From positions 1 through 35,029 of IMG/VR virus record IMGVR_UViG_2737471845_000031: 35,029 nt of DNA, one strand, 5' to 3'. Shown here piece after piece: positions 3,194 through 26,033 of the stretch. Position 1 is the first letter of the stretch. Each line of letters opens with the position of its first letter. Origin of the DNA: a virus. Lineage: Duplodnaviria > Heunggongvirae > Uroviricota > Caudoviricetes. A model generated the notes under the pieces. The model was not told the DNA's origin. It did not search any database and was given only the letters and a program-made list of their open reading frames with translations. The position numbers and the translations under genes were made by a program.

Positions 3194-3721
3194 TCAATGG
3201 GAATGGTGATTAGAGTTCTGACCATCAGCAAATATGTTACCCGTTGCATGGGCGCTTCCGTTGATTTCCAGATCACCATTGAGTGTCGCGGGGCCGTTGA
3301 TCGTGGTAACTCCCGTGAGGTCGAGGTTTTTCCCTTTGAGAGAGATATCAGCGGCAACCTCCACCACGATACGCTCAATACCTCCTCTGACCGTCAGCGT
3401 ATGGGTCGCGCGGTTATAACTGAACTCCGCGCCATCAGCGTATTTCGTACCCCGGACGTTTTTATCACTGAACGGCGGTTTATCGACGTCTGAGTACACC
3501 GCGCCCAGAATAACACCATCCTCGCCGTTGGCATCGAGCAGCACCTCAACCTGCTCCCCCACGTCAGGGAGCCAGTAATCCTTGTTATCCTGGGTATTGC
3601 GCTGTAGCACGTTAAGCCAGTTTGTGCGCAGATTATCGCATTCAGGCAGACGAACGCGGGCCTGAACCCTGTCGGCATCAACGGCACTGACCGTACCGAT
3701 CTGACGGGTGACACCAGTCAT
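3194..3721 (-). CDS. baseplate assembly / spike protein (P2 gpV-like)
   Basis: 175-aa ORF, Gly-rich beta-type sequence, placed between the gpD-like hub and gp25-like wedge genes as in P2/Mu tail modules. Confidence 0.7.
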   Translation of the reverse strand: MTGVTRQIGTVSAVDADRVQARVRLPECDNLRTNWLNVLQRNTQDNKDYWLPDVGEQVEVLLDANGEDGVILGAVYSDVDKPPFSDKNVRGTKYADGAEFSYNRATHTLTVRGGIERIVVEVAADISLKGKNLDLTGVTTINGPATLNGDLEINGSAHATGNIFADGQNSNHHSH

Positions 3722-4872
3722 TTTTTCTTCTCCTTAATCACCGTCGATGTACTGCCATCCGGGTGATAAACCGTGAGTTTCTGAGTTTTTTGTTTTTTCC
3801 CTCTTGTGACTGGCCCCCGTGCCACTTCCAGCTCTGTGGTGTAGCCGCTGTTACGCTCAAACGCATGGCGGGCAGTGATTATCAGCCATGGACCGGATAA
3901 CTGTCCAAAGCCCACCAGTTCAATTTTGTTGCCTGCTGTCAGTTGAGGCGTTCCCGTCAGCGTCAGGGAGCCGTTCTGCTGGTATTCGTTATGTCTGGCC
4001 AGTGCTGAATCCGCTTTAATCCGGGCACTGTCCGGGTCGCTGACGCGGCTGTTAACTTTAAGTGAGTCAGCGCTGGTAACCTTACCGCCTTTGAGCTTTT
4101 TGTCGCTTTCACGGGTACCACCATCAGCTTCGTAGACGATCAGTTTTTTACTGCTGCTTTTCTGGTGTTTTACCTTTGCAGATTTATAGACCCGGTTGAT
4201 GGTGTCACGCAGGGAAAAGCAGGCCACATCCTGCGGTTTTAACTGCCTGACCGGCTCCTGACTGCGCAGTGTGGCCAGATGAGAAAAAATCAACTGGTCA
4301 CTGACCACTTTCACTGCATAACCATACTCGCTGGCCAGCCGGCGCAGAAAACCCACGTCGGTTTCAGCATACTGGGTCACCCGGTCGATTCTGATGGACT
4401 CAATGCTGCCCACCAGTTTCAGCCGGTGCTTTCTGGCAATCCGCCCCGCAACAGCTGCCAGCGTGGTGTTCTCAAAACCACGGCTGGATTTAGTCCGCAG
4501 AGCACTGTTAACCGAGGTGGCCACCCCACGGATAGCGACAACGGACGCGGGCGAACTCACTTCGATCTCGTCTATTGAGAATGTACCGCAGGACAGCAGT
4601 TTCTCGCCCTGATAACCCATTTTCAGCGTCAGCGTGTCACCCTTGCCCGGATACCACTTATCCAGCCAGCGGCCATCGGTGTCGTCCAGCTCCACCTCAA
4701 TGGTATCGGACTCATTTTTGATGTTATCGCTCCAGACCACACGGGTGACATAAGGCGCGATATCAGAGGTGATGTTTTTCTGCAGATACCACAGAGTGAA
4801 TACCGGCGTCAGCACATCGCTGACGCCGGTTAACGCTGATGTGGCTTGCGCAGTACTGTTTATCTCAGCCAT
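3718..4872 (-). CDS. tail/baseplate hub protein (P2 gpD / Mu P-like)
   Basis: 384-aa ORF following the tail protein X-like gene; size and position match the 'late control D' tail proteins. Confidence 0.65.
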   Translation of the reverse strand: MAEINSTAQATSALTGVSDVLTPVFTLWYLQKNITSDIAPYVTRVVWSDNIKNESDTIEVELDDTDGRWLDKWYPGKGDTLTLKMGYQGEKLLSCGTFSIDEIEVSSPASVVAIRGVATSVNSALRTKSSRGFENTTLAAVAGRIARKHRLKLVGSIESIRIDRVTQYAETDVGFLRRLASEYGYAVKVVSDQLIFSHLATLRSQEPVRQLKPQDVACFSLRDTINRVYKSAKVKHQKSSSKKLIVYEADGGTRESDKKLKGGKVTSADSLKVNSRVSDPDSARIKADSALARHNEYQQNGSLTLTGTPQLTAGNKIELVGFGQLSGPWLIITARHAFERNSGYTTELEVARGPVTRGKKQKTQKLTVYHPDGSTSTVIKEKKK

Positions 4873-19339: not shown

Positions 19340-19884
19340 GATACCACCCCCAGAATTTCCCGGCGCAGTGCCTGTACGGCTTCCGCAGAGAGCCCGCCCT
19401 TACGGGCAATTTTCTCGGCGGCAGCGGCAGCACGTTCAACCCTCTCTCTGACTTCTGCCTGATAGCGCTTGAGGTTGACCGAGGCGCGGGTCAGTGTGGC
19501 GATATTTTTTGAAGCCGTTGCCAGCAGTTTTGCCCGGGCGAAGGGATCGTCGTTTTCCCGCGACTCCTGCAGGCGCATCAGGATATCCGTCATTTCGGTC
19601 TGGACGAGGGTTATCAGCCCGGCTGAACGGTCATCAGGATCGTCTCCGGCCTCCCGGGCAAGCAGACGCGCTGCCTCGGTTGCCGCCCGCACCCGGGCCA
19701 GTTGCTGCTCCATTTTGTAGCCAAACCGCTGCAGGGAAGAGCGGGTGATGCTGTACCCCTTTTCCTTCAACAGACTTTCAAGCTCTGCATAGCCGGTGAA
19801 ATTATTCTCCGTCAGTGCCCGCTCAAGCCAGCGACGGACCTCCTTCGGCAGAGAATCAATGCTGCTGCGACGTCCCATAATCAC
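19336..19884 (-). CDS. terminase small subunit-like protein (Mu gp27-like)
   Basis: 182-aa ORF overlapping the large terminase start (ATGA); basic N-terminus and helical C-terminus. Start may be GTG 19884 or ATG 19878. Confidence 0.6.
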   Translation of the reverse strand: MIMGRRSSIDSLPKEVRRWLERALTENNFTGYAELESLLKEKGYSITRSSLQRFGYKMEQQLARVRAATEAARLLAREAGDDPDDRSAGLITLVQTEMTDILMRLQESRENDDPFARAKLLATASKNIATLTRASVNLKRYQAEVRERVERAAAAAEKIARKGGLSAEAVQALRREILGVVS

Positions 19885-20192
19885 TCACTCCAGTATTTTT
19901 CCGGGCGGGCAATACCGGGGCCGCATTCCACGGTGTATTCCACAATATCCACACCAAGGCGACTCAGATCGGCAAACCAGTCACCGGAAGGCCTCTTCTC
20001 CAGTTCCACCATCTTGCGATCTGCCAGGTAATCAAGCTCACGGCGCAGCTCCAGTTGCGTGGTGTCCGGGTAGATGGCGCGGGACACTTCCAGCAGCAGC
20101 GTCTCGCTGGCGGTATAAGGGCGGATTTTGTTCAGGGCAACCAGCAGACTCCAGCGCAGGGATTCACGGCGTACCCGGGTAATATCGACCAT
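19881..20192 (-). CDS. hypothetical late protein (Mu gp26 position)
   Basis: 103-aa ORF, translationally coupled within the late operon. Confidence 0.4.
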   Translation of the reverse strand: MVDITRVRRESLRWSLLVALNKIRPYTASETLLLEVSRAIYPDTTQLELRRELDYLADRKMVELEKRPSGDWFADLSRLGVDIVEYTVECGPGIARPEKYWSE

Positions 20193-20518
20193 TATTGACC
20201 TCCGGTATTGCGGTACTGCTGTACCACTTCCAGTTTGTTGTAGAGCGCGTCCAGTTTGGCCTCGATGACTGTCTGGCCACGGATATAATCCTCGCGACGG
20301 ACATAATTCAGCGGTAAATCCGCTTTAAATCGCATAAATTCTTTTTCCAGTTCGCCCCAGTTGGAGGCGGACTGTTGCAGGGCCTGCTCAAGGGAGGCGA
20401 ATCGTGCCGCCTGGCGTTCTTCTGTTTTACTGAACAACCATTTGGCGAGCCCTCCCACAAACCCCATGAAGGTGAGCAAAAAACTCACCACCGTCCAGAA
20501 TTCAACCTGCAGTGTCAT
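20192..20518 (-). CDS. membrane-anchored coiled-coil protein (Mu gp25 position)
   Basis: 108-aa ORF with an N-terminal TM helix (FWTVVSFLLTFMGFVGGLAKWLF) followed by a helical domain. Confidence 0.4.
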   Translation of the reverse strand: MTLQVEFWTVVSFLLTFMGFVGGLAKWLFSKTEERQAARFASLEQALQQSASNWGELEKEFMRFKADLPLNYVRREDYIRGQTVIEAKLDALYNKLEVVQQYRNTGGQ

Positions 20519-21168
20519 TTCTGTAATCCTTCCCGTTCATCCAGTAGCGCGTTTATCTGGTTTCGCCAGCGACGACATTGCCCTGCGTTGTCGATGATGT
20601 TGGCAAGGACGTCAAGCTGGGAGACACCCGAATTGCGTAACCGGGCGTCAGCGGTTTCAGGTTGCCCGGTCGCTGCGCCAGTGCCGGTGCCAGCGGCGGC
20701 AACTGAGTCTGAATGACCGGTGTCGACGGATGCGTTGTCGTATCCGAGTGCGGCGTTGTACTGGCGCACGAAACCGCGAGTAAACACGCACTCAATGGGA
20801 TGGCTCTTACCTTTTTCATCAATCCAGCGCTGTGTGACATCGTTAATTTGCCCCTGTAGTTGTTTGTTCTGGTCCTCCAGTTGAGCAATCTGCTCAAGAT
20901 AACCAGCTTCAGCCCGTTGCCCGGCGGCTACCTGCTCCTGATAACGCTCAGACCATGCGCGCAACGCCGCCACCTCACGCCGGGCCTGTTCTGCCCGGTA
21001 TCCGTCAAAATCCGCCTGCAGGCGGCTGAGCGCCGCCTGACCGTCAGCGGAGGCCCGGTCGTGGCCTGTGCTGTATCCCAGCCACCAGATCGCCAGCAGG
21101 AAGGTGTTCAGGAGAATGGCCAGCATAATGACCCGCCACGGCAGCGACCGTAACTTACGTACCCACAC
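20515..21168 (-). CDS. i-spanin (Rz-like)
   Basis: Basic N-terminus, one TM (MLAILLNTFLLAIWWLGY), then a long predicted coiled coil. Likely start GTG 21168 with GGGGAGGGG RBS; the ORF-track start 21270 overlaps the endolysin. Confidence 0.6.
   Translation of the reverse strand: MWVRKLRSLPWRVIMLAILLNTFLLAIWWLGYSTGHDRASADGQAALSRLQADFDGYRAEQARREVAALRAWSERYQEQVAAGQRAEAGYLEQIAQLEDQNKQLQGQINDVTQRWIDEKGKSHPIECVFTRGFVRQYNAALGYDNASVDTGHSDSVAAAGTGTGAATGQPETADARLRNSGVSQLDVLANIIDNAGQCRRWRNQINALLDEREGLQK
20553..20819 (-). CDS. o-spanin (Rz1-like lipoprotein), embedded in the i-spanin gene
   Basis: +1-frame ORF wholly inside the Rz-like gene: signal peptide MKKVRAIPLSACLLAVSC with lipobox-like Cys, then a short Pro-rich mature region. 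Confidence 0.55.
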   Translation of the reverse strand: MKKVRAIPLSACLLAVSCASTTPHSDTTTHPSTPVIQTQLPPLAPALAQRPGNLKPLTPGYAIRVSPSLTSLPTSSTTQGNVVAGETR

Positions 21169-21886
21169 AGCTTGCCCCTCCCCATGAGAGATAACGCGGG
21201 GCCAGCGTGAACAGGATGCGCTGGGGATAATGACGGTTCTCCCGCCAGCTGGCAGCATTGCGTCCGGCATTCACCGTGGCGACATGTCCGAACCAGCGGG
21301 TACGGTCCAGCCCTTTCTGTGATGCAAGTTGCCTGTCCCGCTGTACCCAGCCCAGACCACCGTTATAGCCCGACAGTGTCATGGCCATACGCTCGCAGTC
21401 GTTGGCGGCGCTGACGCGCTGCCACAGCCAGCGGTCATAACTGACCAGCGCCCGGATAGCCCATGCCGGATTAAACGGCTCTCGACTGCTCAGCGCCGGC
21501 ATCAACTGGCTTATCCAGTCGGCAGTGGCAGGCATAAACTGCGCCAGTCCCTGAGCGCCAGCCGGCGAGATCGCATCAGGTCGCCAGCCGCTTTCCTGAT
21601 GCAGTTGCGCAGCGAAATCAGCCACCGGCGCAGACAGTCCCCATTCAAGCCGGGCATTACGGATCACATCATCGCGATACTGCAGCGCAGCCTGCGGAGG
21701 CTGCGCTGCGCGGGCCTGACTGAAGAAGCCGCCACACCAGAGCAGCCAGACAATCACCAGGTTGCCAGTAAGTTGCCACCAGAAGCTGTATTTATCGTTA
21801 CGTGGTTCTCCGTGTCTGATGGCGGTTACGCCCAGACCAAAGGCGAACAGAATAATGAGGGTGATTTGAGGCCAGTTCATGGTCAC
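21155..21886 (-). CDS. lytic transglycosylase endolysin with N-terminal membrane segments (SAR-like)
   Basis: 243-aa ORF with SLT-type motifs (HQESGWRP, GAQGLAQFMPATA) and two N-terminal hydrophobic segments. Start GTG 21886 overlapping the holin stop, or ATG 21880. Confidence 0.75.
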   Translation of the reverse strand: MTMNWPQITLIILFAFGLGVTAIRHGEPRNDKYSFWWQLTGNLVIVWLLWCGGFFSQARAAQPPQAALQYRDDVIRNARLEWGLSAPVADFAAQLHQESGWRPDAISPAGAQGLAQFMPATADWISQLMPALSSREPFNPAWAIRALVSYDRWLWQRVSAANDCERMAMTLSGYNGGLGWVQRDRQLASQKGLDRTRWFGHVATVNAGRNAASWRENRHYPQRILFTLAPRYLSWGGASCVGT

Positions 21887-22233
21887 AGTCCTGTTGCCAC
21901 AGCCAGACAGATCGCTGCAACAATCAGTGCACGGCGGATTAACGCAGCAGCAAACACAAGGTGAAGGCCGGTCTGCACAGGGAAACGCCCTTCAGCCATC
22001 AGCCTGTCGTCATGTTTCAGGTACTGACCGGGACGGGCTTTGGGGAAGAGCGAACGGTCAAGCCAGTAACCCAGCACTGCTGCCAGCGTGATGAGTGCCA
22101 GCTTGTAGATCACAACAGGCAACTGCTGTGGCGAGACCAGAGCGATGGTGCCCAGCAACAGCACTGAGGTCAGCAGCCAGCCGCTGAGGCGAGGTTTTTT
22201 AACAGGGGGAATGAATTTTTTCAGGCTTTTCAT
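21883..22233 (-). CDS. holin-like membrane protein
   Basis: ~116 aa from ATG 22233 (AAGGAG RBS); three predicted TM segments; first gene of the lysis cassette. The ORF-track start at 22266 is less likely. Confidence 0.55.
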   Translation of the reverse strand: MKSLKKFIPPVKKPRLSGWLLTSVLLLGTIALVSPQQLPVVIYKLALITLAAVLGYWLDRSLFPKARPGQYLKHDDRLMAEGRFPVQTGLHLVFAAALIRRALIVAAICLAVATGL

Positions 22234-22252
22234 GTGTGTCTCCTTGTCTGGT

Positions 22253-22291
22253 GGAGACAGCATCACAAATACAGGGCGCGAAGGATTTTAA
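22253..22291 (-). promoter_or_regulatory. candidate activator-dependent late promoter and leader upstream of lysis genes
   Basis: Minus-strand TTAAAATC, 23 nt, CTGTCTCC, then ACCAGACAAGGAGACACAC-ATG; CTGTCTCC can pair with GGAGACA that includes the SD. Poor -35. Confidence 0.45.
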
Positions 22292-22363
22292 AGCGCGTTA
22301 AGAGAGCCGGGGATACGGGGTGTGCAGGATAAACGATGAATTATTCACAGAGGAGAATACGAT

Positions 22364-23107
22364 ATGACGCACACACTGAATCCGGTCATCACTGTCACTG
22401 TGTCCGGTCCTGTGGGCAGCGGTAAAAGTTACGTACTGGCGCGGATAGAAGAGATGGTGAAACAGGAACTCGGAAACAGCGTCATTGTCGATGCTGCTGA
22501 CGTGGAGAATGAGCGCCGTATGAGTGGCGATGATCTGACGACCTGGCAGAAGCCACGGGCTGGCACAGTGATCAGGCTGGAGGAATACACGGGACAGGGC
22601 CTGTTGTCATACGGCGAGGAGCGTATCTGTCGGACGAATGAGCTGCTGGATGTTATATGCCCCACGGGCCGGCAACCCTGGATACTGCCCGATGCACTGC
22701 ATGCCACCATTGCGGCACTGATGACAGTTTACGATCAGGAGCTGCTCATGAAGGAGTTACGTAAACTCGCTGGTCAGCCAACAGAATGTTTTTCGGCCCC
22801 GAAGTACGGGAAGCAGGAACACATCCCGGTGAACACAATCCCCGTTAACCAGCCTCCCCGGTTCTTCGACGAATACATTCTGACACCGGAAAATAAAGCT
22901 GAGCATGAAGAGATCAAAGCGGCGTTGTTCCGGGAAATCAGGAAGATTGCTGAAATGCAGCTGGAGGGCGGGCTGGACAGAGTGATGGCGAGAGGAGAAT
23001 GGGAATCGCTGTTTGAAAAAGTTTCCCCGGAATTGCTTCCCCTCGCACTGGCTATCGGGATTATGCAGACAACGGATAAACCTCACTTACGTTCATTAAA
23101 CACGTAA
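22364..23107 (+). CDS. hypothetical P-loop (Walker A) protein
   Basis: 247-aa ORF, ATG 22364 with AGGAGA RBS; N-terminal VSGPVGSGKSYVL Walker A-like motif; no further recognisable domain. Divergent from the late operon. Confidence 0.5.
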   Translation: MTHTLNPVITVTVSGPVGSGKSYVLARIEEMVKQELGNSVIVDAADVENERRMSGDDLTTWQKPRAGTVIRLEEYTGQGLLSYGEERICRTNELLDVICPTGRQPWILPDALHATIAALMTVYDQELLMKELRKLAGQPTECFSAPKYGKQEHIPVNTIPVNQPPRFFDEYILTPENKAEHEEIKAALFREIRKIAEMQLEGGLDRVMARGEWESLFEKVSPELLPLALAIGIMQTTDKPHLRSLNT

Positions 23108-23487
23108 CGCATAATCCGGGATACGCATTCAGCGATGACTGCATTTTCACCGGTTTTTACTGCATCCAGAAGCGACTCTTTAAATGGCACGGGCCGGGGC
23201 TGCAGAAAGGTCGGCATGGCATTGAGCAGACAGAGCGTTTTTTCCGTGAGGACGACATCAGCCGCTCCCACAGCCAGCAACTGAGAGTAACGAATATAGC
23301 TGTTATCCCGAAGCCATATCAGCGTATCAATAAAATACCGGCACTTTTTCTGGTCGTGATCAACCTGGTCCGGGATATCGAAAAAACCAGAATAAATCAA
23401 AACCTGAGGTACCGGATGCGTGTTCAGTAATCGGCAGAATATTTTGCCGGTGAGTACATAAAAATCATCATTTAAGGAGTGCATCAT
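23083..23487 (-). CDS. hypothetical protein, paralog B of the 23951-24331 gene
   Basis: 134-aa ORF filling the gap between flanking plus-strand ORFs. Alignable blocks with paralog A (IFCRLLNTHP ~ IFGRLYESFP, FIDTLIWLRDNSY ~ FLDTVDWLKNSGY, VVLTEKTLCLLNA ~ AVLTAKGLEVLNA). Confidence 0.45.
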   Translation of the reverse strand: MMHSLNDDFYVLTGKIFCRLLNTHPVPQVLIYSGFFDIPDQVDHDQKKCRYFIDTLIWLRDNSYIRYSQLLAVGAADVVLTEKTLCLLNAMPTFLQPRPVPFKESLLDAVKTGENAVIAECVSRIMRYVFNERK

Positions 23488-23701
23488 GAATCCCCGATTA
23501 ACGTTAACAGAACATCAGCGCCGTGCTGAAGCAGTGAACAATGTTCTGGAAGATATTATCCGGTTACATCGCGGAGAACTGAGTATCTGTCGTGCCACTG
23601 TTCATTTTCAGGAAATACAAAAGCAGTTTGATACTTCTGTTTTTGCAGAAGGGCTCACTTACGCCCTGGACCAGATAAGGTCAGAAAATCACCCCGGATA
23701 A
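23486..23701 (+). CDS. hypothetical small protein
   Basis: 71-aa ORF with AAGGAG RBS 6 nt upstream; its start overlaps the divergent paralog B start (CATG). It may instead be non-coding leader. Confidence 0.35.
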   Translation: MNPRLTLTEHQRRAEAVNNVLEDIIRLHRGELSICRATVHFQEIQKQFDTSVFAEGLTYALDQIRSENHPG

Positions 23702-23757
23702 TCCCTAAACCGCATTAACAGAAATCCCACTATCCCTGCCGCATCATGAAAGAACGA

Positions 23758-23785
23758 CCAGCCCGGCACCCGAAAGCCGGGCTGG
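23758..23785 (-). terminator. GC-rich hairpin (candidate minus-strand terminator)
   Basis: Perfect 10-bp inverted repeat CCAGCCCGGC / GCCGGGCTGG with 8-nt loop; minus-strand downstream sequence is TCGTTCTTTCATG. Confidence 0.4.
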
Positions 23786-23890
23786 CCATCGTCCCACAGG
23801 AATGCACTGTGAGCCGACCGAGGTTCAGTCAGTCTCGTGAGACCAGACTAGCCTGCCATATTTTTAATAATTGTAAAATGTTTACAGATT

Positions 23891-23992
23891 ATGAAAACGC
23901 AGACATTACCCATCGTTCCATGGATTGGTGGCAAACGCTGCCTTGCGATATTACATAAGACCACGAGACATATATTGCAGACCTATTCCTAG
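23891..23992 (+). pseudogene. diverged 5' remnant of a second Dam methyltransferase gene
   Basis: Encodes MKTQTLPIVPWIGGKRCLAILHK..., matching the Dam N-terminus MKEQSLPIVPWIGGKRRLAKHILPQ; stops after 33 codons and runs into the 3' end of the paralog A gene. Preceded by a ~90-nt leader ~70% identical to the leader of the intact dam. Confidence 0.5.
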
Positions 23993-24331
23993 AGTCTGGC
24001 TAACCAGTGATCGCAACGCTTCTTTCCCTTCAATTTTTATAGAGTCAGATATTCTGGCCCCCAACGGTTTTTCCAGACTTCCAGGCGTAGCGTTTAATAC
24101 CTCAAGACCTTTAGCCGTTAGCACTGCGTTGTGGATCCCCCCAGAACTACGCGCCCCGATTAAATAGCCACTGTTTTTAAGCCAGTCTACGGTATCAAGA
24201 AAAAAAGTAAGTTCATTCTGTCTAACGATATCAACTGCCTTTATATCAATTTTGACGGGGAAAGATTCGTAGAGTCTCCCAAATATCTCACCAACTATTT
24301 CATTAAACCGCTCAATATTTTTTGGGGCCAT
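23951..24331 (-). CDS. hypothetical protein, paralog A (possible winged-helix protein)
   Basis: Likely ~126 aa from ATG 24331 (GGGAG upstream); the ORF-track start at 24415 would cover a hairpin. Contains an LT-x-KG-like segment (AVLTAKGLEVL). Divergent from dam. Confidence 0.5.
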   Translation of the reverse strand: MAPKNIERFNEIVGEIFGRLYESFPVKIDIKAVDIVRQNELTFFLDTVDWLKNSGYLIGARSSGGIHNAVLTAKGLEVLNATPGSLEKPLGARISDSIKIEGKEALRSLVSQTLGIGLQYMSRGLM

Positions 24332-24378
24332 GGTATTAGTAACTCCCTTTAATTGTCGCCCATGAAATATGCAAATAA

Positions 24379-24411
24379 CATGAAAAGAGCGACTCACCTT
24401 GTGCAGCGAAC
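24379..24411 (-). terminator. hairpin (candidate minus-strand terminator or insulator) between dam leader and paralog A
   Basis: 13-bp inverted repeat GACTCACCTTGTG / CACAAGGCGAGTC (one mismatch) with 7-nt loop; minus-strand downstream sequence GCTCTTTTCATGTTATTTGC. Confidence 0.4.
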
Positions 24412-24525
24412 ACAAGGCGAGTCATCAACTTACAGGTATGAGCTGTGAGTCAACCGAGGCTCTTCCGTTCTCGAGAACAAGGGAAGCCTATCGCATTTTC
24501 ATCTAATGAAAAAGGCTTACAGATA

Positions 24526-25290
24526 ATGAAAGAACAATCTTTACCCATCGTCCCCTGGATTGGGGGAAAACGTCGTCTGGCCAAACACATTCTGCCTCAG
24601 TTCCCACTCCATACCTGCTATGTGGAGCCATTCTGCGGCGCAGCAGCACTTTATTTTCTCAAGACTCCCAGCAAGATCGAAGTCATTAACGATATCAACG
24701 GTGAACTGGTAAATCTGTATCGGGTAGTAAAGCATCATCTGGAAGAATTTGTCCGCCAATTCAAATGGGCGCTGGTTAGCCGGCAGATCTACAAATGGCT
24801 GCAGATCACCCCGGAAGAAACACTGACGGATATCCAGCGTGCGGCACGGTTCTACTACCTCCAGAAGCAGGCGTTTGGGGGCAAGGTGGCAGAGCACAGC
24901 TTCGGCACCTCCACCACCTCCCCGCCACGCTTCAACCTGCTACGGATTGAAGAAGAACTGTCAGCGGCACACCTGCGGCTTTCCAGAACGGTGATAGAAC
25001 ACATGGACTGGCACCAGTGCATTAAGCGTTATGACCGTCCGCACACGCTGTTCTACTGTGATCCGCCCTATCTGGGGACGGAAGGCTATGGTGTGGATTT
25101 TCCTGAAGAGAACTACACACTACTCGCAGAACTGGCACGGTGCATCAGAGGAAAGATGATTATCTCGGTGAATGACATTCCGCAGATGCGTCGGGTGTTC
25201 ACTGAACTGAACATACAGACGGTGAATATCAACTACAGTCTGGCGGGGAAACCCACGCCACGCCGTGAACTGGTAATCTGCAACTTCTGA
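24526..25290 (+). CDS. dam: DNA N6-adenine methyltransferase (Dam family)
   Basis: 254 aa from ATG 24526; N-terminus LPIVPWIGGKRRL, FCGAAAL SAM-binding-type motif and catalytic DPPY, as in Dam-family N6-adenine methyltransferases. No adjacent restriction endonuclease gene. Confidence 0.85.
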   Translation: MKEQSLPIVPWIGGKRRLAKHILPQFPLHTCYVEPFCGAAALYFLKTPSKIEVINDINGELVNLYRVVKHHLEEFVRQFKWALVSRQIYKWLQITPEETLTDIQRAARFYYLQKQAFGGKVAEHSFGTSTTSPPRFNLLRIEEELSAAHLRLSRTVIEHMDWHQCIKRYDRPHTLFYCDPPYLGTEGYGVDFPEENYTLLAELARCIRGKMIISVNDIPQMRRVFTELNIQTVNINYSLAGKPTPRRELVICNF

Positions 25291-25319
25291 ACAAAACCGG
25301 AAAGCACAATGCTTTCCGG
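25291..25319 (-). terminator. intrinsic terminator between convergent dam and repressor genes
   Basis: Perfect 10-bp stem CCGGAAAGCA / TGCTTTCCGG with 3-nt loop, followed on the minus strand by TTTTGT; sits right after the dam stop. Confidence 0.55.
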
Positions 25320-25405
25320 TAAACCAAACAACTTCCACTATGTCACTGGCGATGTTTTCTGAAAGCATCCAGATCAACCACGCGCCCTTTGTGTCCAGGT
25401 CAAAA

Positions 25406-25744
25406 TCAGCCTGCGAGTTTGCTTGGTTTGGGTTGAATGAAGACTTTGCCGACCTCAAGAATTGCCCTCCGTTGTTCGGGGCTCATTTCGTCGAATGCAT
25501 CCATTAACTCTTTCTTTTCTTGTGACACATAAGGTGCAACAACAGGCTGACTCCGCACCCCAGTAACTACATACAAAATATCTACACCGATTTCTGATAG
25601 TGCAGATAACTGCACTGCAGTAGGAGAAGTGCGATCTTTTTCCCAATCAATGAAAGTTCTCTTTGCCACACCTATAGCATCAGCCAACCCTTGCTGTGTA
25701 AGAGATAGACGCTCTCTTTCTTCTTTAATACGTAACCCGATCAT
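25406..25744 (-). CDS. XRE-family HTH lysogeny repressor
   Basis: Likely 113 aa from ATG 25744; HTH region LSLTQQGLADAIGVAKRTFIDWEKDRTSP. Divergent from the early operon, as for Mu c/ner. The ORF-track start 25897 would overlap the early gene by 53 nt. Confidence 0.75.
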   Translation of the reverse strand: MIGLRIKEERERLSLTQQGLADAIGVAKRTFIDWEKDRTSPTAVQLSALSEIGVDILYVVTGVRSQPVVAPYVSQEKKELMDAFDEMSPEQRRAILEVGKVFIQPKPSKLAG

Positions 25745-25768
25745 GTGAGTTTTTCTGCACTCTTTAAG

Positions 25769-25797
25769 TTGACTGGTGAGATAATCTGCACCATAAT
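25769..25797 (+). promoter_or_regulatory. early promoter (sigma70-like) with candidate operator repeats
   Basis: TTGACT (25769-25774), 17-nt spacer, CATAAT (25792-25797), ~47 nt upstream of the first early gene. TCTGCAC occurs twice (25754, 25785) and ATAATCT twice. Confidence 0.55.
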
Positions 25798-25844
25798 CTA
25801 TCACACATAAGGCAAACATCATTGCATCAACAAAGGAGACAACG

Positions 25845-26033
25845 ATGACTGCAGAACAAGTCAAAGCTCTCTTCCGCCAGCGCGGGATCACTTTCACCCG
25901 CTGGGCAGAAGAAAACGGCTACAACCGCAATGAGGTATACCGCGTTCTCAATGGGCAGACCAAAGCCCGTTACGGTAAATCCCATGAAATCGCCGTGAAG
26001 TTGGGGCTGAAATCAACAGCTCAGGCAGCCTGA
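25845..26033 (+). CDS. Cro/Ner-like small DNA-binding regulator
   Basis: 62-aa ORF, AAGGAG RBS 6 nt upstream, first gene of the early operon divergent from the repressor; helical basic protein. Confidence 0.55.
   Translation: MTAEQVKALFRQRGITFTRWAEENGYNRNEVYRVLNGQTKARYGKSHEIAVKLGLKSTAQAA

Follow-up and report, generated by a model that had tools for sequence, protein, structure and literature searches.

The window, a 35,029-nucleotide stretch of viral DNA, very probably carries the late-operon lysis set of a BcepMu-type (Mu-like) transposable prophage of E. coli, consisting of a Sec-exported and probably signal peptidase I-cut endolysin, a holin that acts as the trigger, and an embedded spanin pair. 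The genes for the holin, the SLT endolysin, the i-spanin, and the o-spanin are all located on the minus strand (Table 1). Sequence and comparison establish what these genes are, that the o-spanin gene is embedded and constrained by dual coding, and that the endolysin has the catalytic Glu, hydrophobic segments, and a conserved cleavage-type motif. BLASTP and colinearity revealed a gene-for-gene match between the cassette and gp21–gp26 of phage BcepMu (NC_005882; Summer et al. 2004), where the genes are arranged alike: a holin, an SLT endolysin, an Rz gene that harbors Rz1 in the +1 frame, a small membrane protein, gp26, and the small terminase. All six BcepMu proteins matched window products in BLASTP, with identities of 53% (gp21 holin, E=2e-28), 61% (gp22 vs. 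the endolysin's catalytic domain, E=6e-77), 30% (gp23 Rz, E=2e-9), 39% (gp24, E=1e-4, or E=1e-10 without composition correction), 53% (gp25, E=2e-34), and 57% (gp26). Because of this match, the cassette belongs to a kind that is already known, though the host of the window is E. coli, whereas BcepMu is a Burkholderia phage. Kongari et al. (2018, PMC6139136) list the spanins of BcepMu/phiE255 and of B3 as two-component families of the embedded type. The original prediction of a lysis cassette whose spanin pair is of the embedded Rz/Rz1 type was thus borne out by family matches, colinearity with BcepMu, and conservation of the embedded ORF. The value of the result lies mainly in annotation. DNA at least 80% identical to the cassette was found in 638 of 5426 complete E. 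coli genomes. As a rule, the i-spanin is annotated as a hypothetical protein, with a truncated start in an identical RefSeq locus, and the o-spanin gene is missing from every database record inspected.

Table 1. Features of the lysis cassette and of the gene downstream of it (positions in the window).
Feature	Position	Strand	Basis
Holin, 116 aa (MKSLKK...)	21883..22233	-	PF13272, phrog_1528, BcepMu gp21 match
Endolysin precursor, SLT-family lytic transglycosylase, 243 aa from GTG 21886 (241 aa from ATG 21880)	21155..21886	-	PF01464, phrog_669
Predicted endolysin N-terminal export module, residues 1–60	21707..21886	-	Hydropathy, composition, phrog_5479 match
i-spanin (Rz-like), 217 aa from GTG 21168	20515..21168	-	phrog_1403, GGAGG, relatives' alignment
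o-spanin (Rz1-like), 88 aa, +1 frame inside i-spanin gene	20553..20819	-	Lipobox, conservation, BcepMu gp24 match
108-aa membrane protein (BcepMu gp25 homologue)	20192..20518	-	phrog_462, BcepMu gp25 match

Successive genes from the holin through the large terminase overlap by 1–14 nt, which suggests a single coupled operon. A promoter and terminator scan of positions 19800–22500 revealed no σ70-like promoter and one terminator-like site, a number below chance expectation. The lack of a promoter in this interval is uninformative alone and is consistent with activator-dependent late transcription. In the low-GC region adjoining the cassette, a PADLOC scan yielded nothing beyond a Dam-type methyltransferase and a repressor-like protein of the helix-turn-helix kind.

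The holin matched PF13272 Holin_2-3 well above threshold (137 bits, E=2.6e-40; Pfam cut-off of 27) and phrog_1528 holin (E=1e-53 in PHROGs). As is characteristic of Holin_2-3 proteins of the BcepMu gp21 type, its gene adjoins that of the endolysin: the holin stop and the endolysin start share a GTGA overlap. An AAGGAG ribosome-binding site is present for the holin gene. The protein has two to three strongly hydrophobic, predicted transmembrane segments, with Kyte-Doolittle hydropathy peaks at ca. residues 15–43 and 88–116. A pinholin-type partner of the endolysin had been predicted at this position. The position proved correct, while the pinholin assignment found no support: in the Pfam and PHROGs scans only PF13272 and phrog_1528 scored, and the pinholins of the phage 21 S family (S21-68 type), whose first of two transmembrane segments is a SAR domain, gave no match. 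The size of the hole that a holin makes cannot be read from its sequence.

The endolysin matched PF01464 SLT with 54.5 bits (Pfam cut-off of 21.3) and phrog_669 endolysin with E=6e-69 (PHROGs). The Q-E98-S segment of the protein aligned with Q-E478-S of E. coli Slt70, which contains the catalytic Glu478, and Glu98 is invariant across 26 homologues. The above-threshold family match together with the catalytic Glu in an E-S motif identifies the protein as an SLT lytic transglycosylase. Two Cys, C162 and C238 (241-aa numbering), are also invariant in these endolysins and would fit a periplasmic disulfide. The catalytic domain is preceded by two uncharged hydrophobic stretches, residues 5–23 and 35–55, so the earlier description of the enzyme as an SLT-type transglycosylase with N-terminal hydrophobic segments was confirmed.

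The N-terminal module is composed of helix 1 (residues 5–23), a loop (RHGEPRNDKYS), helix 2 (residues 35–55), and a predicted signal-peptidase site, SQARA↓A. An AF2 model built from a 26-sequence alignment, which was used for secondary structure alone in view of its modest to low confidence (mean pLDDT of 65.6), contained helices at residues 3–21 and 33–49 and a low-confidence linker at 56–60. The inter-helix loop carries three Lys/Arg and the N-tail none, which, by the positive-inside rule, would place the catalytic domain outside. Export of the endolysin is strongly indicated, and Sec-dependent export is the best reading of its N-terminus. The two-helix signal is unusual: BcepMu gp22 carries a 20-aa classical-looking signal, MRVLIAFVVALLGAAAPVAA↓Q, while the window enzyme has a 60-aa module at the equivalent place.

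A small-x-small (A-x-A) site, conforming to the (−3,−1) pattern, is found straight after the hydrophobic stretch in 45 of 46 unique junctions between the N-terminus and the catalytic domain in relatives, and the Ala-Ala at the predicted cleavage site is invariant in 26 aligned endolysins. The N-termini themselves are swapped among relatives, being represented by the two-helix module, a one-helix deletion derivative of it, or an unrelated classical signal peptide. Since A-x-A is kept whatever the N-terminus, Sec export with cleavage is favored. A conserved A-x-A junction is a signature of processing by signal peptidase I, and SAR endolysins lack it. Cleavage is predicted here only on the strength of the (−3,−1) rule and of how well the site is conserved; to our knowledge, cleavage has not been demonstrated experimentally for any Gram-negative phage endolysin of this SLT family. 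The window enzyme resembles signal-peptide endolysins (Lys44 of phage fOg44 and, by prediction, the lysin of Burkholderia phage KS10, a homologue with 51% identity) in having a hydrophobic N-terminus followed by a signal-peptidase-type site and an adjoining holin gene, but adds an N-terminal helix and a conserved loop before the signal-like helix. For the KS10 lysin, a published SignalP analysis (PMC2628397) placed a cut at the corresponding site, AHA↓Q; this was the sole such prediction in the literature searched, which excluded the original BcepMu paper and contained no statement on whether BcepMu gp22 is a SAR or a cleaved enzyme.

The endolysin could instead be a SAR enzyme paired with a pinholin, i.e., exported by Sec, left uncleaved, tethered in an inactive state by its N-terminal helices, and freed when a small-hole holin depolarises the membrane. 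We consider this unlikely. The presence and conservation of the N-terminal hydrophobic segments agree with it, as do the moderate hydrophobicity of helix 2 (Kyte-Doolittle mean of 1.26, with Gln, Asn, Thr, and Gly present) and the precedent of SAR endolysins, the transglycosylase type included, in other Mu-like phages (PMC9239132). As in the SAR systems of P1 (Lyz), phage 21 (R21/S21), and Mu (gp22/gp25), the endolysin carries its own N-terminal membrane or export signal, and the Mu-like phage setting and the small, predicted N-out membrane protein downstream of the spanins recall Mu and its gp25. However, a SAR domain is a single, weakly hydrophobic, Gly/Ala/Ser/Thr-rich N-terminal segment, while the window enzyme has two segments joined by a charged loop that would need to cross the membrane for the hairpin to escape. 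The share of Gly, Ala, Ser, and Thr in these segments is 32% and 19%, compared to 59% in the validated SAR domain of Mu gp22, and that of Leu, Ile, Val, Phe, Met, and Trp is 58% and 67%, compared to 29%. Relatives that carry a classical n-h-c signal peptide are among those with the conserved A-x-A junction. The window enzyme is not a muramidase but a transglycosylase, and the holin, with its two to three predicted helices, belongs to a different family. A thiol switch of the P1 Lyz type acting via the Cys of helix 2 was also considered and rejected as unlikely, since this residue is Ser in several relatives and variable in free-standing homologues of the module. Of the SAR secretion route that had been predicted, the Sec-dependent export core thus stands, while the SAR specifics are disfavored by the two non-SAR-like segments and the A-x-A site.

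In a further alternative, the two-helix hairpin is a permanent anchor, neither cleaved nor released, and the enzyme either works while tethered or is freed by a releasin-like activity of the 108-aa membrane protein, which may be part of the lysis cassette. This protein matched phrog_462 (E=1.6e-36 in PHROGs) and is found in both BcepMu- and B3-type phages; its LPLxYVRREDYIRGQTVIEAKLDA motif is conserved across genera. Behind its N-terminal transmembrane helix come KWLFSK and a domain that is charged and helical. The ATG of its gene overlaps the i-spanin stop, which couples the two translationally. The gene directly follows those of the spanins, holds the second position counted from the endolysin, and precedes gp26-/gp27-like genes; in both position and size, the protein corresponds to the Mu gp25 releasin. 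The predicted layout (by the positive-inside rule, a single pass with N-out and C-in, in a protein of ca. 100 aa encoded no more than five genes downstream of the endolysin) is also that of a releasin. However, a relationship to Mu gp25 (DUF2730) was not detected by BLASTP, by Pfam (no match to PF10805 at E values up to 10, with Mu gp25 itself scoring 50 bits), or by hhalign (probability of 0.2% with an 11-sequence profile), and homology to releasin was rejected; the two proteins are alike in position and topology alone. The 108-aa protein is also encoded beside endolysins with plain signal peptides (BcepMu, Photorhabdus), so its presence is independent of the hairpin. Moreover, a common E. 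coli variant of the endolysin (P0229, 1104 member sequences) has a degenerate helix 1. Permanent anchoring therefore appears improbable compared to export with cleavage.

The two-helix module has relatives outside lysis cassettes. Endolysin residues 3–56 matched phrog_5479 in PHROGs and aligned end to end with proteins of this family from Xanthomonas phage FoX5 (gp66), BcepB1A (gp72), and Mica (gp63), with the motifs WPQI, KHGxP, and GGFF in common. A full HMMER scan recovered 516 clusters of module homologues, most of them free-standing proteins of 53–62 aa, while a word-indexed search with the 56-aa module returned solely fragments of the same endolysin. Judged by these profile matches, endolysin residues 1–56 have their homologues in a large family of two-helix membrane proteins, uncharacterised and free-standing, a finding that is mildly novel. 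The phrog_5479 proteins are encoded among early/replication genes, whereas the window module is an N-terminal fusion, followed by a cleavage-type site and the enzyme. The link to an endolysin provides the first functional context for this widespread orphan family. The endolysin family, in turn, represents a natural series of interchangeable export signals placed before one catalytic domain, with the signal-peptidase-type site retained, and for this reason offers a convenient test of whether cleaved, secreted endolysins exist beside SAR enzymes in Gram-negative phages. A more speculative idea, to which we assign a low likelihood, is that the gene yields two products, a cleaved periplasmic transglycosylase and a leftover membrane hairpin of ca. 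60 aa with a role of its own, e.g., in lysis timing or membrane action. The hairpin would then be a full-length phrog_5479-like protein (WPQI...KHGxP...GGFF), and endolysin export would be wired to a second membrane factor in a new way.

Lysis of Gram-negative hosts usually proceeds in three steps that depend on the endolysin, the holin, and the spanins. For the window cassette, we infer how the proteins sit in the membrane, where the endolysin is cut, how the holin controls it, and what the spanins do as follows. The SLT transglycosylase would be made as a precursor whose N-terminus sends the catalytic domain to the periplasm by the Sec route. Helix 2, which follows the positively charged loop, would act as the signal or anchor, and helix 1 would be an accessory helix with its N-terminus out. 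Signal peptidase I would most probably cut at the conserved A-x-A↓A behind helix 2, giving a soluble periplasmic enzyme and the ca. 60-aa membrane hairpin. The PF13272 holin would then build up in the inner membrane and trigger at a set time, and the resulting collapse of membrane potential would unleash the enzyme; since the latter is already exported, hole size need not matter. Until the holin triggers, a cleaved, exported transglycosylase would have to be kept from doing damage, as is known of Lys44, the signal-peptide endolysin of Oenococcus phage fOg44. In the last step, the i-spanin in the inner membrane and the o-spanin in the outer membrane would form a complex that spans the periplasm and destroys the outer membrane after murein is cut.

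The i-spanin matched the phrog_1403 Rz-like spanin family with E=7e-88 (PHROGs), and this was the only match of the window spanins to Pfam, NCBIfam, or PHROG families that recognize other spanins. A basic N-terminal tail, MWVRKLRSLPWR, is followed by a hydrophobic stretch, VIMLAILLNTFLLAIWWLGY, that forms the single predicted transmembrane helix; the periplasmic domain, largely helical and with a coiled-coil look by eye, contains two Cys. Such an arrangement is characteristic of i-spanins. The Rz proteins of B3 and phiE255 could also be aligned with it. The conserved start is GTG 21168, which has GGAGG 8 nt upstream and yields the MW..LPWR N-terminus common to relatives. ATG 21270, which opens a 251-aa ORF, was rejected as the Rz start, as it merely gives the longest ORF. 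At the identical locus of E. coli M-17, RefSeq lists a 203-aa version from ATG 21126.

The lipoprotein ORF was predicted to lie entirely inside the Rz-like gene in a different frame, and it does: the o-spanin ORF covers 0.53–0.94 of the i-spanin length. This is close to the span from 0.4–0.5 to 0.9–1 reported for about 70% of embedded spanins, and in most relatives the ORF ends 38 nt short of the Rz stop. The predicted lipoprotein signal is 18 aa long, MKKVRAIPLSACLLAVSC, followed by AS; its lipobox, AVSC, fits the PROSITE-style pattern. The Cys expected to be lipidated is Cys18 (codon 20766–20768), and Ala, not Asp, at +2 conforms to outer-membrane sorting. The mature part, of ca. 70 aa, is rich in Pro, Ser, and Thr.

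Several features of this ORF would agree with a chance open frame, in which case the outer-membrane step would be done by something else: no Pfam, NCBIfam, or PHROG model matched the protein, its ribosome-binding site is weak, and its mature part contains no Cys, though many o-spanins carry one. The comparative data effectively refute such an origin, and we consider its likelihood negligible. Of 64 related loci from Enterobacterales, Pseudomonas, and Burkholderia, 58 retain the ORF, with its relative position unchanged, down to ca. 30% i-spanin identity and with a conserved LPPLxPAL..RP....PLTPGY motif; the conservation expected of a genuine embedded gene was therefore found. Divergence at Rz codon position 3 is 0.355 outside the overlap and 0.05–0.12 inside it, so that synonymous suppression is confined to the overlap, as expected when both frames are under selection. 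Alternative-frame ORFs with a lipobox were found in 1 of 46 other window ORFs of at least 150 aa and in 54 of 5000 codon-shuffled Rz genes; with a chance rate of ca. 1–2% and retention in 58 of 64 loci, a chance origin is excluded. In addition, the protein is homologous to BcepMu gp24, annotated as ‘Rz1, out of frame, embedded proline-rich protein’. On the sequence evidence, the embedded o-spanin gene is real and has been overlooked by databases; its exact sequence is absent even from a collection of ca. 15 billion proteins.

The spanin pair resembles lambda Rz/Rz1, with which it was compared by description, in three respects: the full nesting of the lipoprotein (o-spanin) gene within that of the i-spanin in the +1 frame, an i-spanin with a transmembrane helix at its N-terminus and a periplasmic domain that is helical, and a Pro-rich o-spanin. 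It differs in the length of the mature o-spanin (ca. 70 aa, compared to 40 aa in lambda) and in its lack of a periplasmic Cys, of which BcepMu gp24 has one. In the lysis region of D3112, the annotated endolysin is just 138 aa long, and the spanins belong to the overlapped DMS3/D3112 family.

Cassette genes were called by listing ORFs, inspecting their start-codon contexts, and searching against profiles (see the table). Downstream of the 108-aa protein gene follow homologues of Mu gp26 and Mu gp27 and then the large terminase gene. Successive genes of this run overlap by 1–14 nt, and no sigma-70-like promoter was found inside it, which suggests a single late operon. The cassette is of the already described BcepMu type, very common and partly unannotated; some novelty lies only in the two-helix export module of the endolysin and in the relationship of that module to small membrane proteins of a large orphan family.

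Features of the lysis cassette and the neighboring low-GC stretch
Feature	Position	Strand	Remarks
Holin, 116 aa	21883-22233	-	PF13272, E=2.6e-40; AAGGAG ribosome-binding site
Endolysin, 243 aa	21155-21886	-	PF01464 SLT; start overlaps holin stop
i-Spanin, 217 aa	20515-21168	-	phrog_1403, E=7e-88; GTG start, GGAGG 8 nt upstream
o-Spanin, 88 aa	20553-20819	-	+1 frame within i-spanin gene
Membrane protein, 108 aa	20192-20518	-	ATG overlaps i-spanin stop
phrog_3787 protein, 247 aa	22364-23107	+	weak P-loop match
Small ORFs, function unknown	~23000-26000		low-GC stretch
Dam-type orphan methyltransferase	24445-25290	+	low-GC stretch
Helix-turn-helix repressor-like protein	25406-25897	-	low-GC stretch

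The Rz (i-spanin) start at 21270 (251 aa) implied by the coordinates of the original prediction is that of the longest possible reading frame; in relatives, the protein starts at the position equivalent to GTG 21168, with the N-terminus MW...LPWR. In RefSeq (PGAP), the i-spanin (3416–4027 of the locus record L001) of the identical E. coli M-17 locus starts from ATG 21126 (203 aa), which drops the basic cytoplasmic tail. Since both the homologues and the ribosome-binding site support the GTG codon, we take it as the start. Among the E. coli records inspected, a single one labels the gene “lysis system spanin subunit”; in a collection of ~15 billion proteins, the i-spanin is a “hypothetical protein” present on >1000 contigs. 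The o-spanin is annotated in none of the RefSeq/GenBank records examined, and no copy of its exact sequence was found in the same collection.

The o-spanin ORF encodes a canonical lipoprotein signal, MKKVRAIPLSACLLAVSC, with Ala at position +2 (the outer-membrane sorting class), and a mature part rich in Pro, Ser, and Thr. We compared 56 related loci (one genome per species) and phage records. Of the 64 loci examined, 58 have a +1-frame lipoprotein ORF at an unchanged relative position; those without it include some whose Rz gene is interrupted or matched only in part. The ORF is kept in Pseudomonas phage B3 and in Burkholderia phage phiE255, with i-spanins just ~30% identical to that of the window, and the motif LPPLxPAL..RP....PLTPGY is common to loci including these two. 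In pairwise comparisons of 14 close Enterobacterales Rz genes, divergence at codon positions 1, 2, and 3 was 0.178, 0.134, and 0.355 upstream of the overlap, 0, 0, and 0.051 over the o-spanin signal peptide, and 0.141, 0.065, and 0.122 over its mature part. The synonymous freedom of Rz is thus reduced in the overlap, as predicted for a second constrained frame. An alternative-frame lipobox ORF was present in 1 of 46 other long ORFs of the window and in 54 of 5000 codon-shuffled Rz genes; the probability that the embedded one arose by chance is low.

In the BcepMu record, gp24 is described as “Rz1, out of frame, embedded proline-rich protein” within the Rz gene, gp23; the window o-spanin matches it in BLASTP with E=1e-4 (1e-10 without composition correction). 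The embedded Rz/Rz1 pair claimed by the original prediction is therefore well beyond chance, given the lipobox signal, its conservation, the suppressed synonymous variation, and the gp24 match, and on sequence grounds the embedded gene is real. BcepMu and phiE255, and likewise B3, JBD18, JBD25, and JBD67, have been described as embedded two-component spanin families (Kongari et al. 2018, PMC6139136). The o-spanin occupies 0.53–0.94 of the i-spanin length, near the usual range for embedded pairs. The mature o-spanin contains no Cys in the E. coli type, but at least one in the Salmonella, Photorhabdus, Burkholderia, and Pseudomonas versions. In the Pseudomonas branch (B3 and the Pseudomonas loci L040–L060), the o-spanin ORF extends 7–19 nt beyond the i-spanin stop, so that here the pair is of the overlapped, not the strictly embedded, kind. 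A single homologous spanin family thus spans two architectures that were kept separate by Kongari et al. 2018 (PMC6139136).

The partner gene upstream of the endolysin does encode a holin, with two to three hydrophobic segments, but not a member of the expected pinholin family: it belongs to the BcepMu gp21 type, and Pfam and PHROGs scans gave no match of the holin to the phage 21 pinholin family. Were the endolysin exported, depolarisation by the holin alone would suffice.

The endolysin's catalytic domain is an SLT-family lytic transglycosylase, 61% identical to that of BcepMu gp22. On alignment with E. coli Slt70, its Q-E98-S motif falls at the catalytic Glu478, and the Glu of the motif is invariant across 26 endolysin homologues. 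The N-terminus consists of an uncharged hydrophobic stretch (residues 5–23), the loop RHGEPRNDKYS, a second hydrophobic stretch (residues 35–55) ending in GGFF, and the sequence SQARA↓AQPP (the arrow marks the cleavage-type site). Three Lys/Arg residues lie in the inter-helix loop and none in the N-tail, so that by the positive-inside rule the N-terminus is likely out, the loop in, and the catalytic domain out. A low-confidence AF2 model (mean pLDDT 65.6) contains helices 3–21 and 33–49, a disordered linker at the A-x-A site, and an all-helical domain.

Among relatives, one catalytic domain follows several alternative N-termini. The two-helix module occurs, besides E. coli, in Salmonella, Pantoea, Serratia, Pectobacterium, Dickeya, Morganella, and Arsenophonus, at identities down to 65%; some variants, including one cluster of 1104 member sequences, carry charges that break the first helix. 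Unrelated classical n-h-c signal peptides precede the same domain in Brenneria, Lonsdalea, BcepMu, phiE255, and KS10. A one-helix derivative with an internal deletion is found in Photorhabdus (L023–L027) and in a further endolysin relative, P0317, with the signal MIMNWRQIIGIVLLWCSGMVSPALA↓DE; in it, the beginning of helix 1 (MNWxQI) seems to be fused to the final part of helix 2 (LLWCxG). Such a deletion, if so, would be a natural change of a hairpin to an ordinary signal peptide. Judged from these N-termini, the extra helix is optional.

A small-x-small site directly follows the hydrophobic stretch in 45 of 46 distinct junctions, all 26 aligned sequences have Ala-Ala at this site, and in the KS10 lysin SignalP predicts cleavage at the equivalent AHA↓Q (PMC2628397). 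The constant feature of the family behind its differing N-termini is thus a Sec-type signal with a signal-peptidase site, and the endolysin is probably exported with its signal cleaved. SAR-type retention in the membrane followed by release, as originally predicted, is unlikely, given the conserved site and the composition of both hydrophobic segments: the experimentally validated SAR domain of Mu gp22 is 59% Gly/Ala/Ser/Thr and 29% Leu/Ile/Val/Phe/Met/Trp, while the endolysin segments are 32%/58% and 19%/67%. Permanent anchoring of the endolysin appears more improbable still. An export signal of its own thus stands; the SAR mechanism probably does not, because the signal looks cleaved.

Endolysin residues 3–56 match the 53-aa profile phrog_5479, which has no assigned function; no Pfam model covers the family. 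A HMMER scan of 1.84 billion representative proteins (clusters at 50% identity) returned 516 clusters at E ≤0.001. Nearly all of the best 150 of the 516 matches are free-standing proteins of 53–62 aa that align with the module end to end. The family shares the motifs WPQI, KHGxP, and GGFF, and some members are tandem duplications of ~110–120 aa. In annotated phages (such as Xanthomonas FoX1–5, Burkholderia BcepB1A gp72 and Mica gp63, and a Rhizobium phage), free-standing members lie among early/replication genes, outside lysis cassettes; two Clostridioides difficile phage records also match. FoX5 gp66 has the C-terminus ...GGFFSQP and stops precisely at the point at which the cleavage-type site starts in the endolysin fusion. 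Cleavage at that site, if it happens, would leave behind a peptide that is a complete member of the small two-helix family.

The 108-aa protein encoded after the spanins is a single-pass membrane protein homologous to BcepMu gp25 (53% identity), with a near-invariant motif, LPLxYVRREDYIRGQTVIEAKLDA, in Enterobacterales, Pseudomonas, and Burkholderia. It resembles the Mu releasin gp25 in size, gene position, and probable N-out single-helix topology; no sequence relationship to Mu gp25 was detected by BLASTP, Pfam, or hhalign. It is present, too, where the endolysin has a plain signal peptide. Participation in lysis is possible but unsupported. The PHROGs label “lipoprotein” looks wrong for this family, since the protein has no lipobox.

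Over the 2.3 kb around the cassette, the DNA is 100% identical to prophages in the chromosomes of several E. coli strains, and 638 of 5426 complete E. coli genomes carry cassette-region DNA at ≥80% identity. The closest phage records are Escherichia phage PhiKM (classified as Bcepmuvirus) and Klebsiella phage KP12. The E. coli M-17 element is a complete transposable myophage with a transposase, a MuB-like ExeA protein, Gam, Mor, and P2-like tail genes. This prophage (1960219–1999962) sits in otsA (trehalose-6-phosphate synthase), leaving two annotated fragments, as expected of insertion by transposition. A low-GC stretch of the window (~23000–26000; GC content 0.47 against ~0.57 elsewhere) separates the lysis cassette from the early region; the methyltransferase is the sole defence-system match in this stretch.
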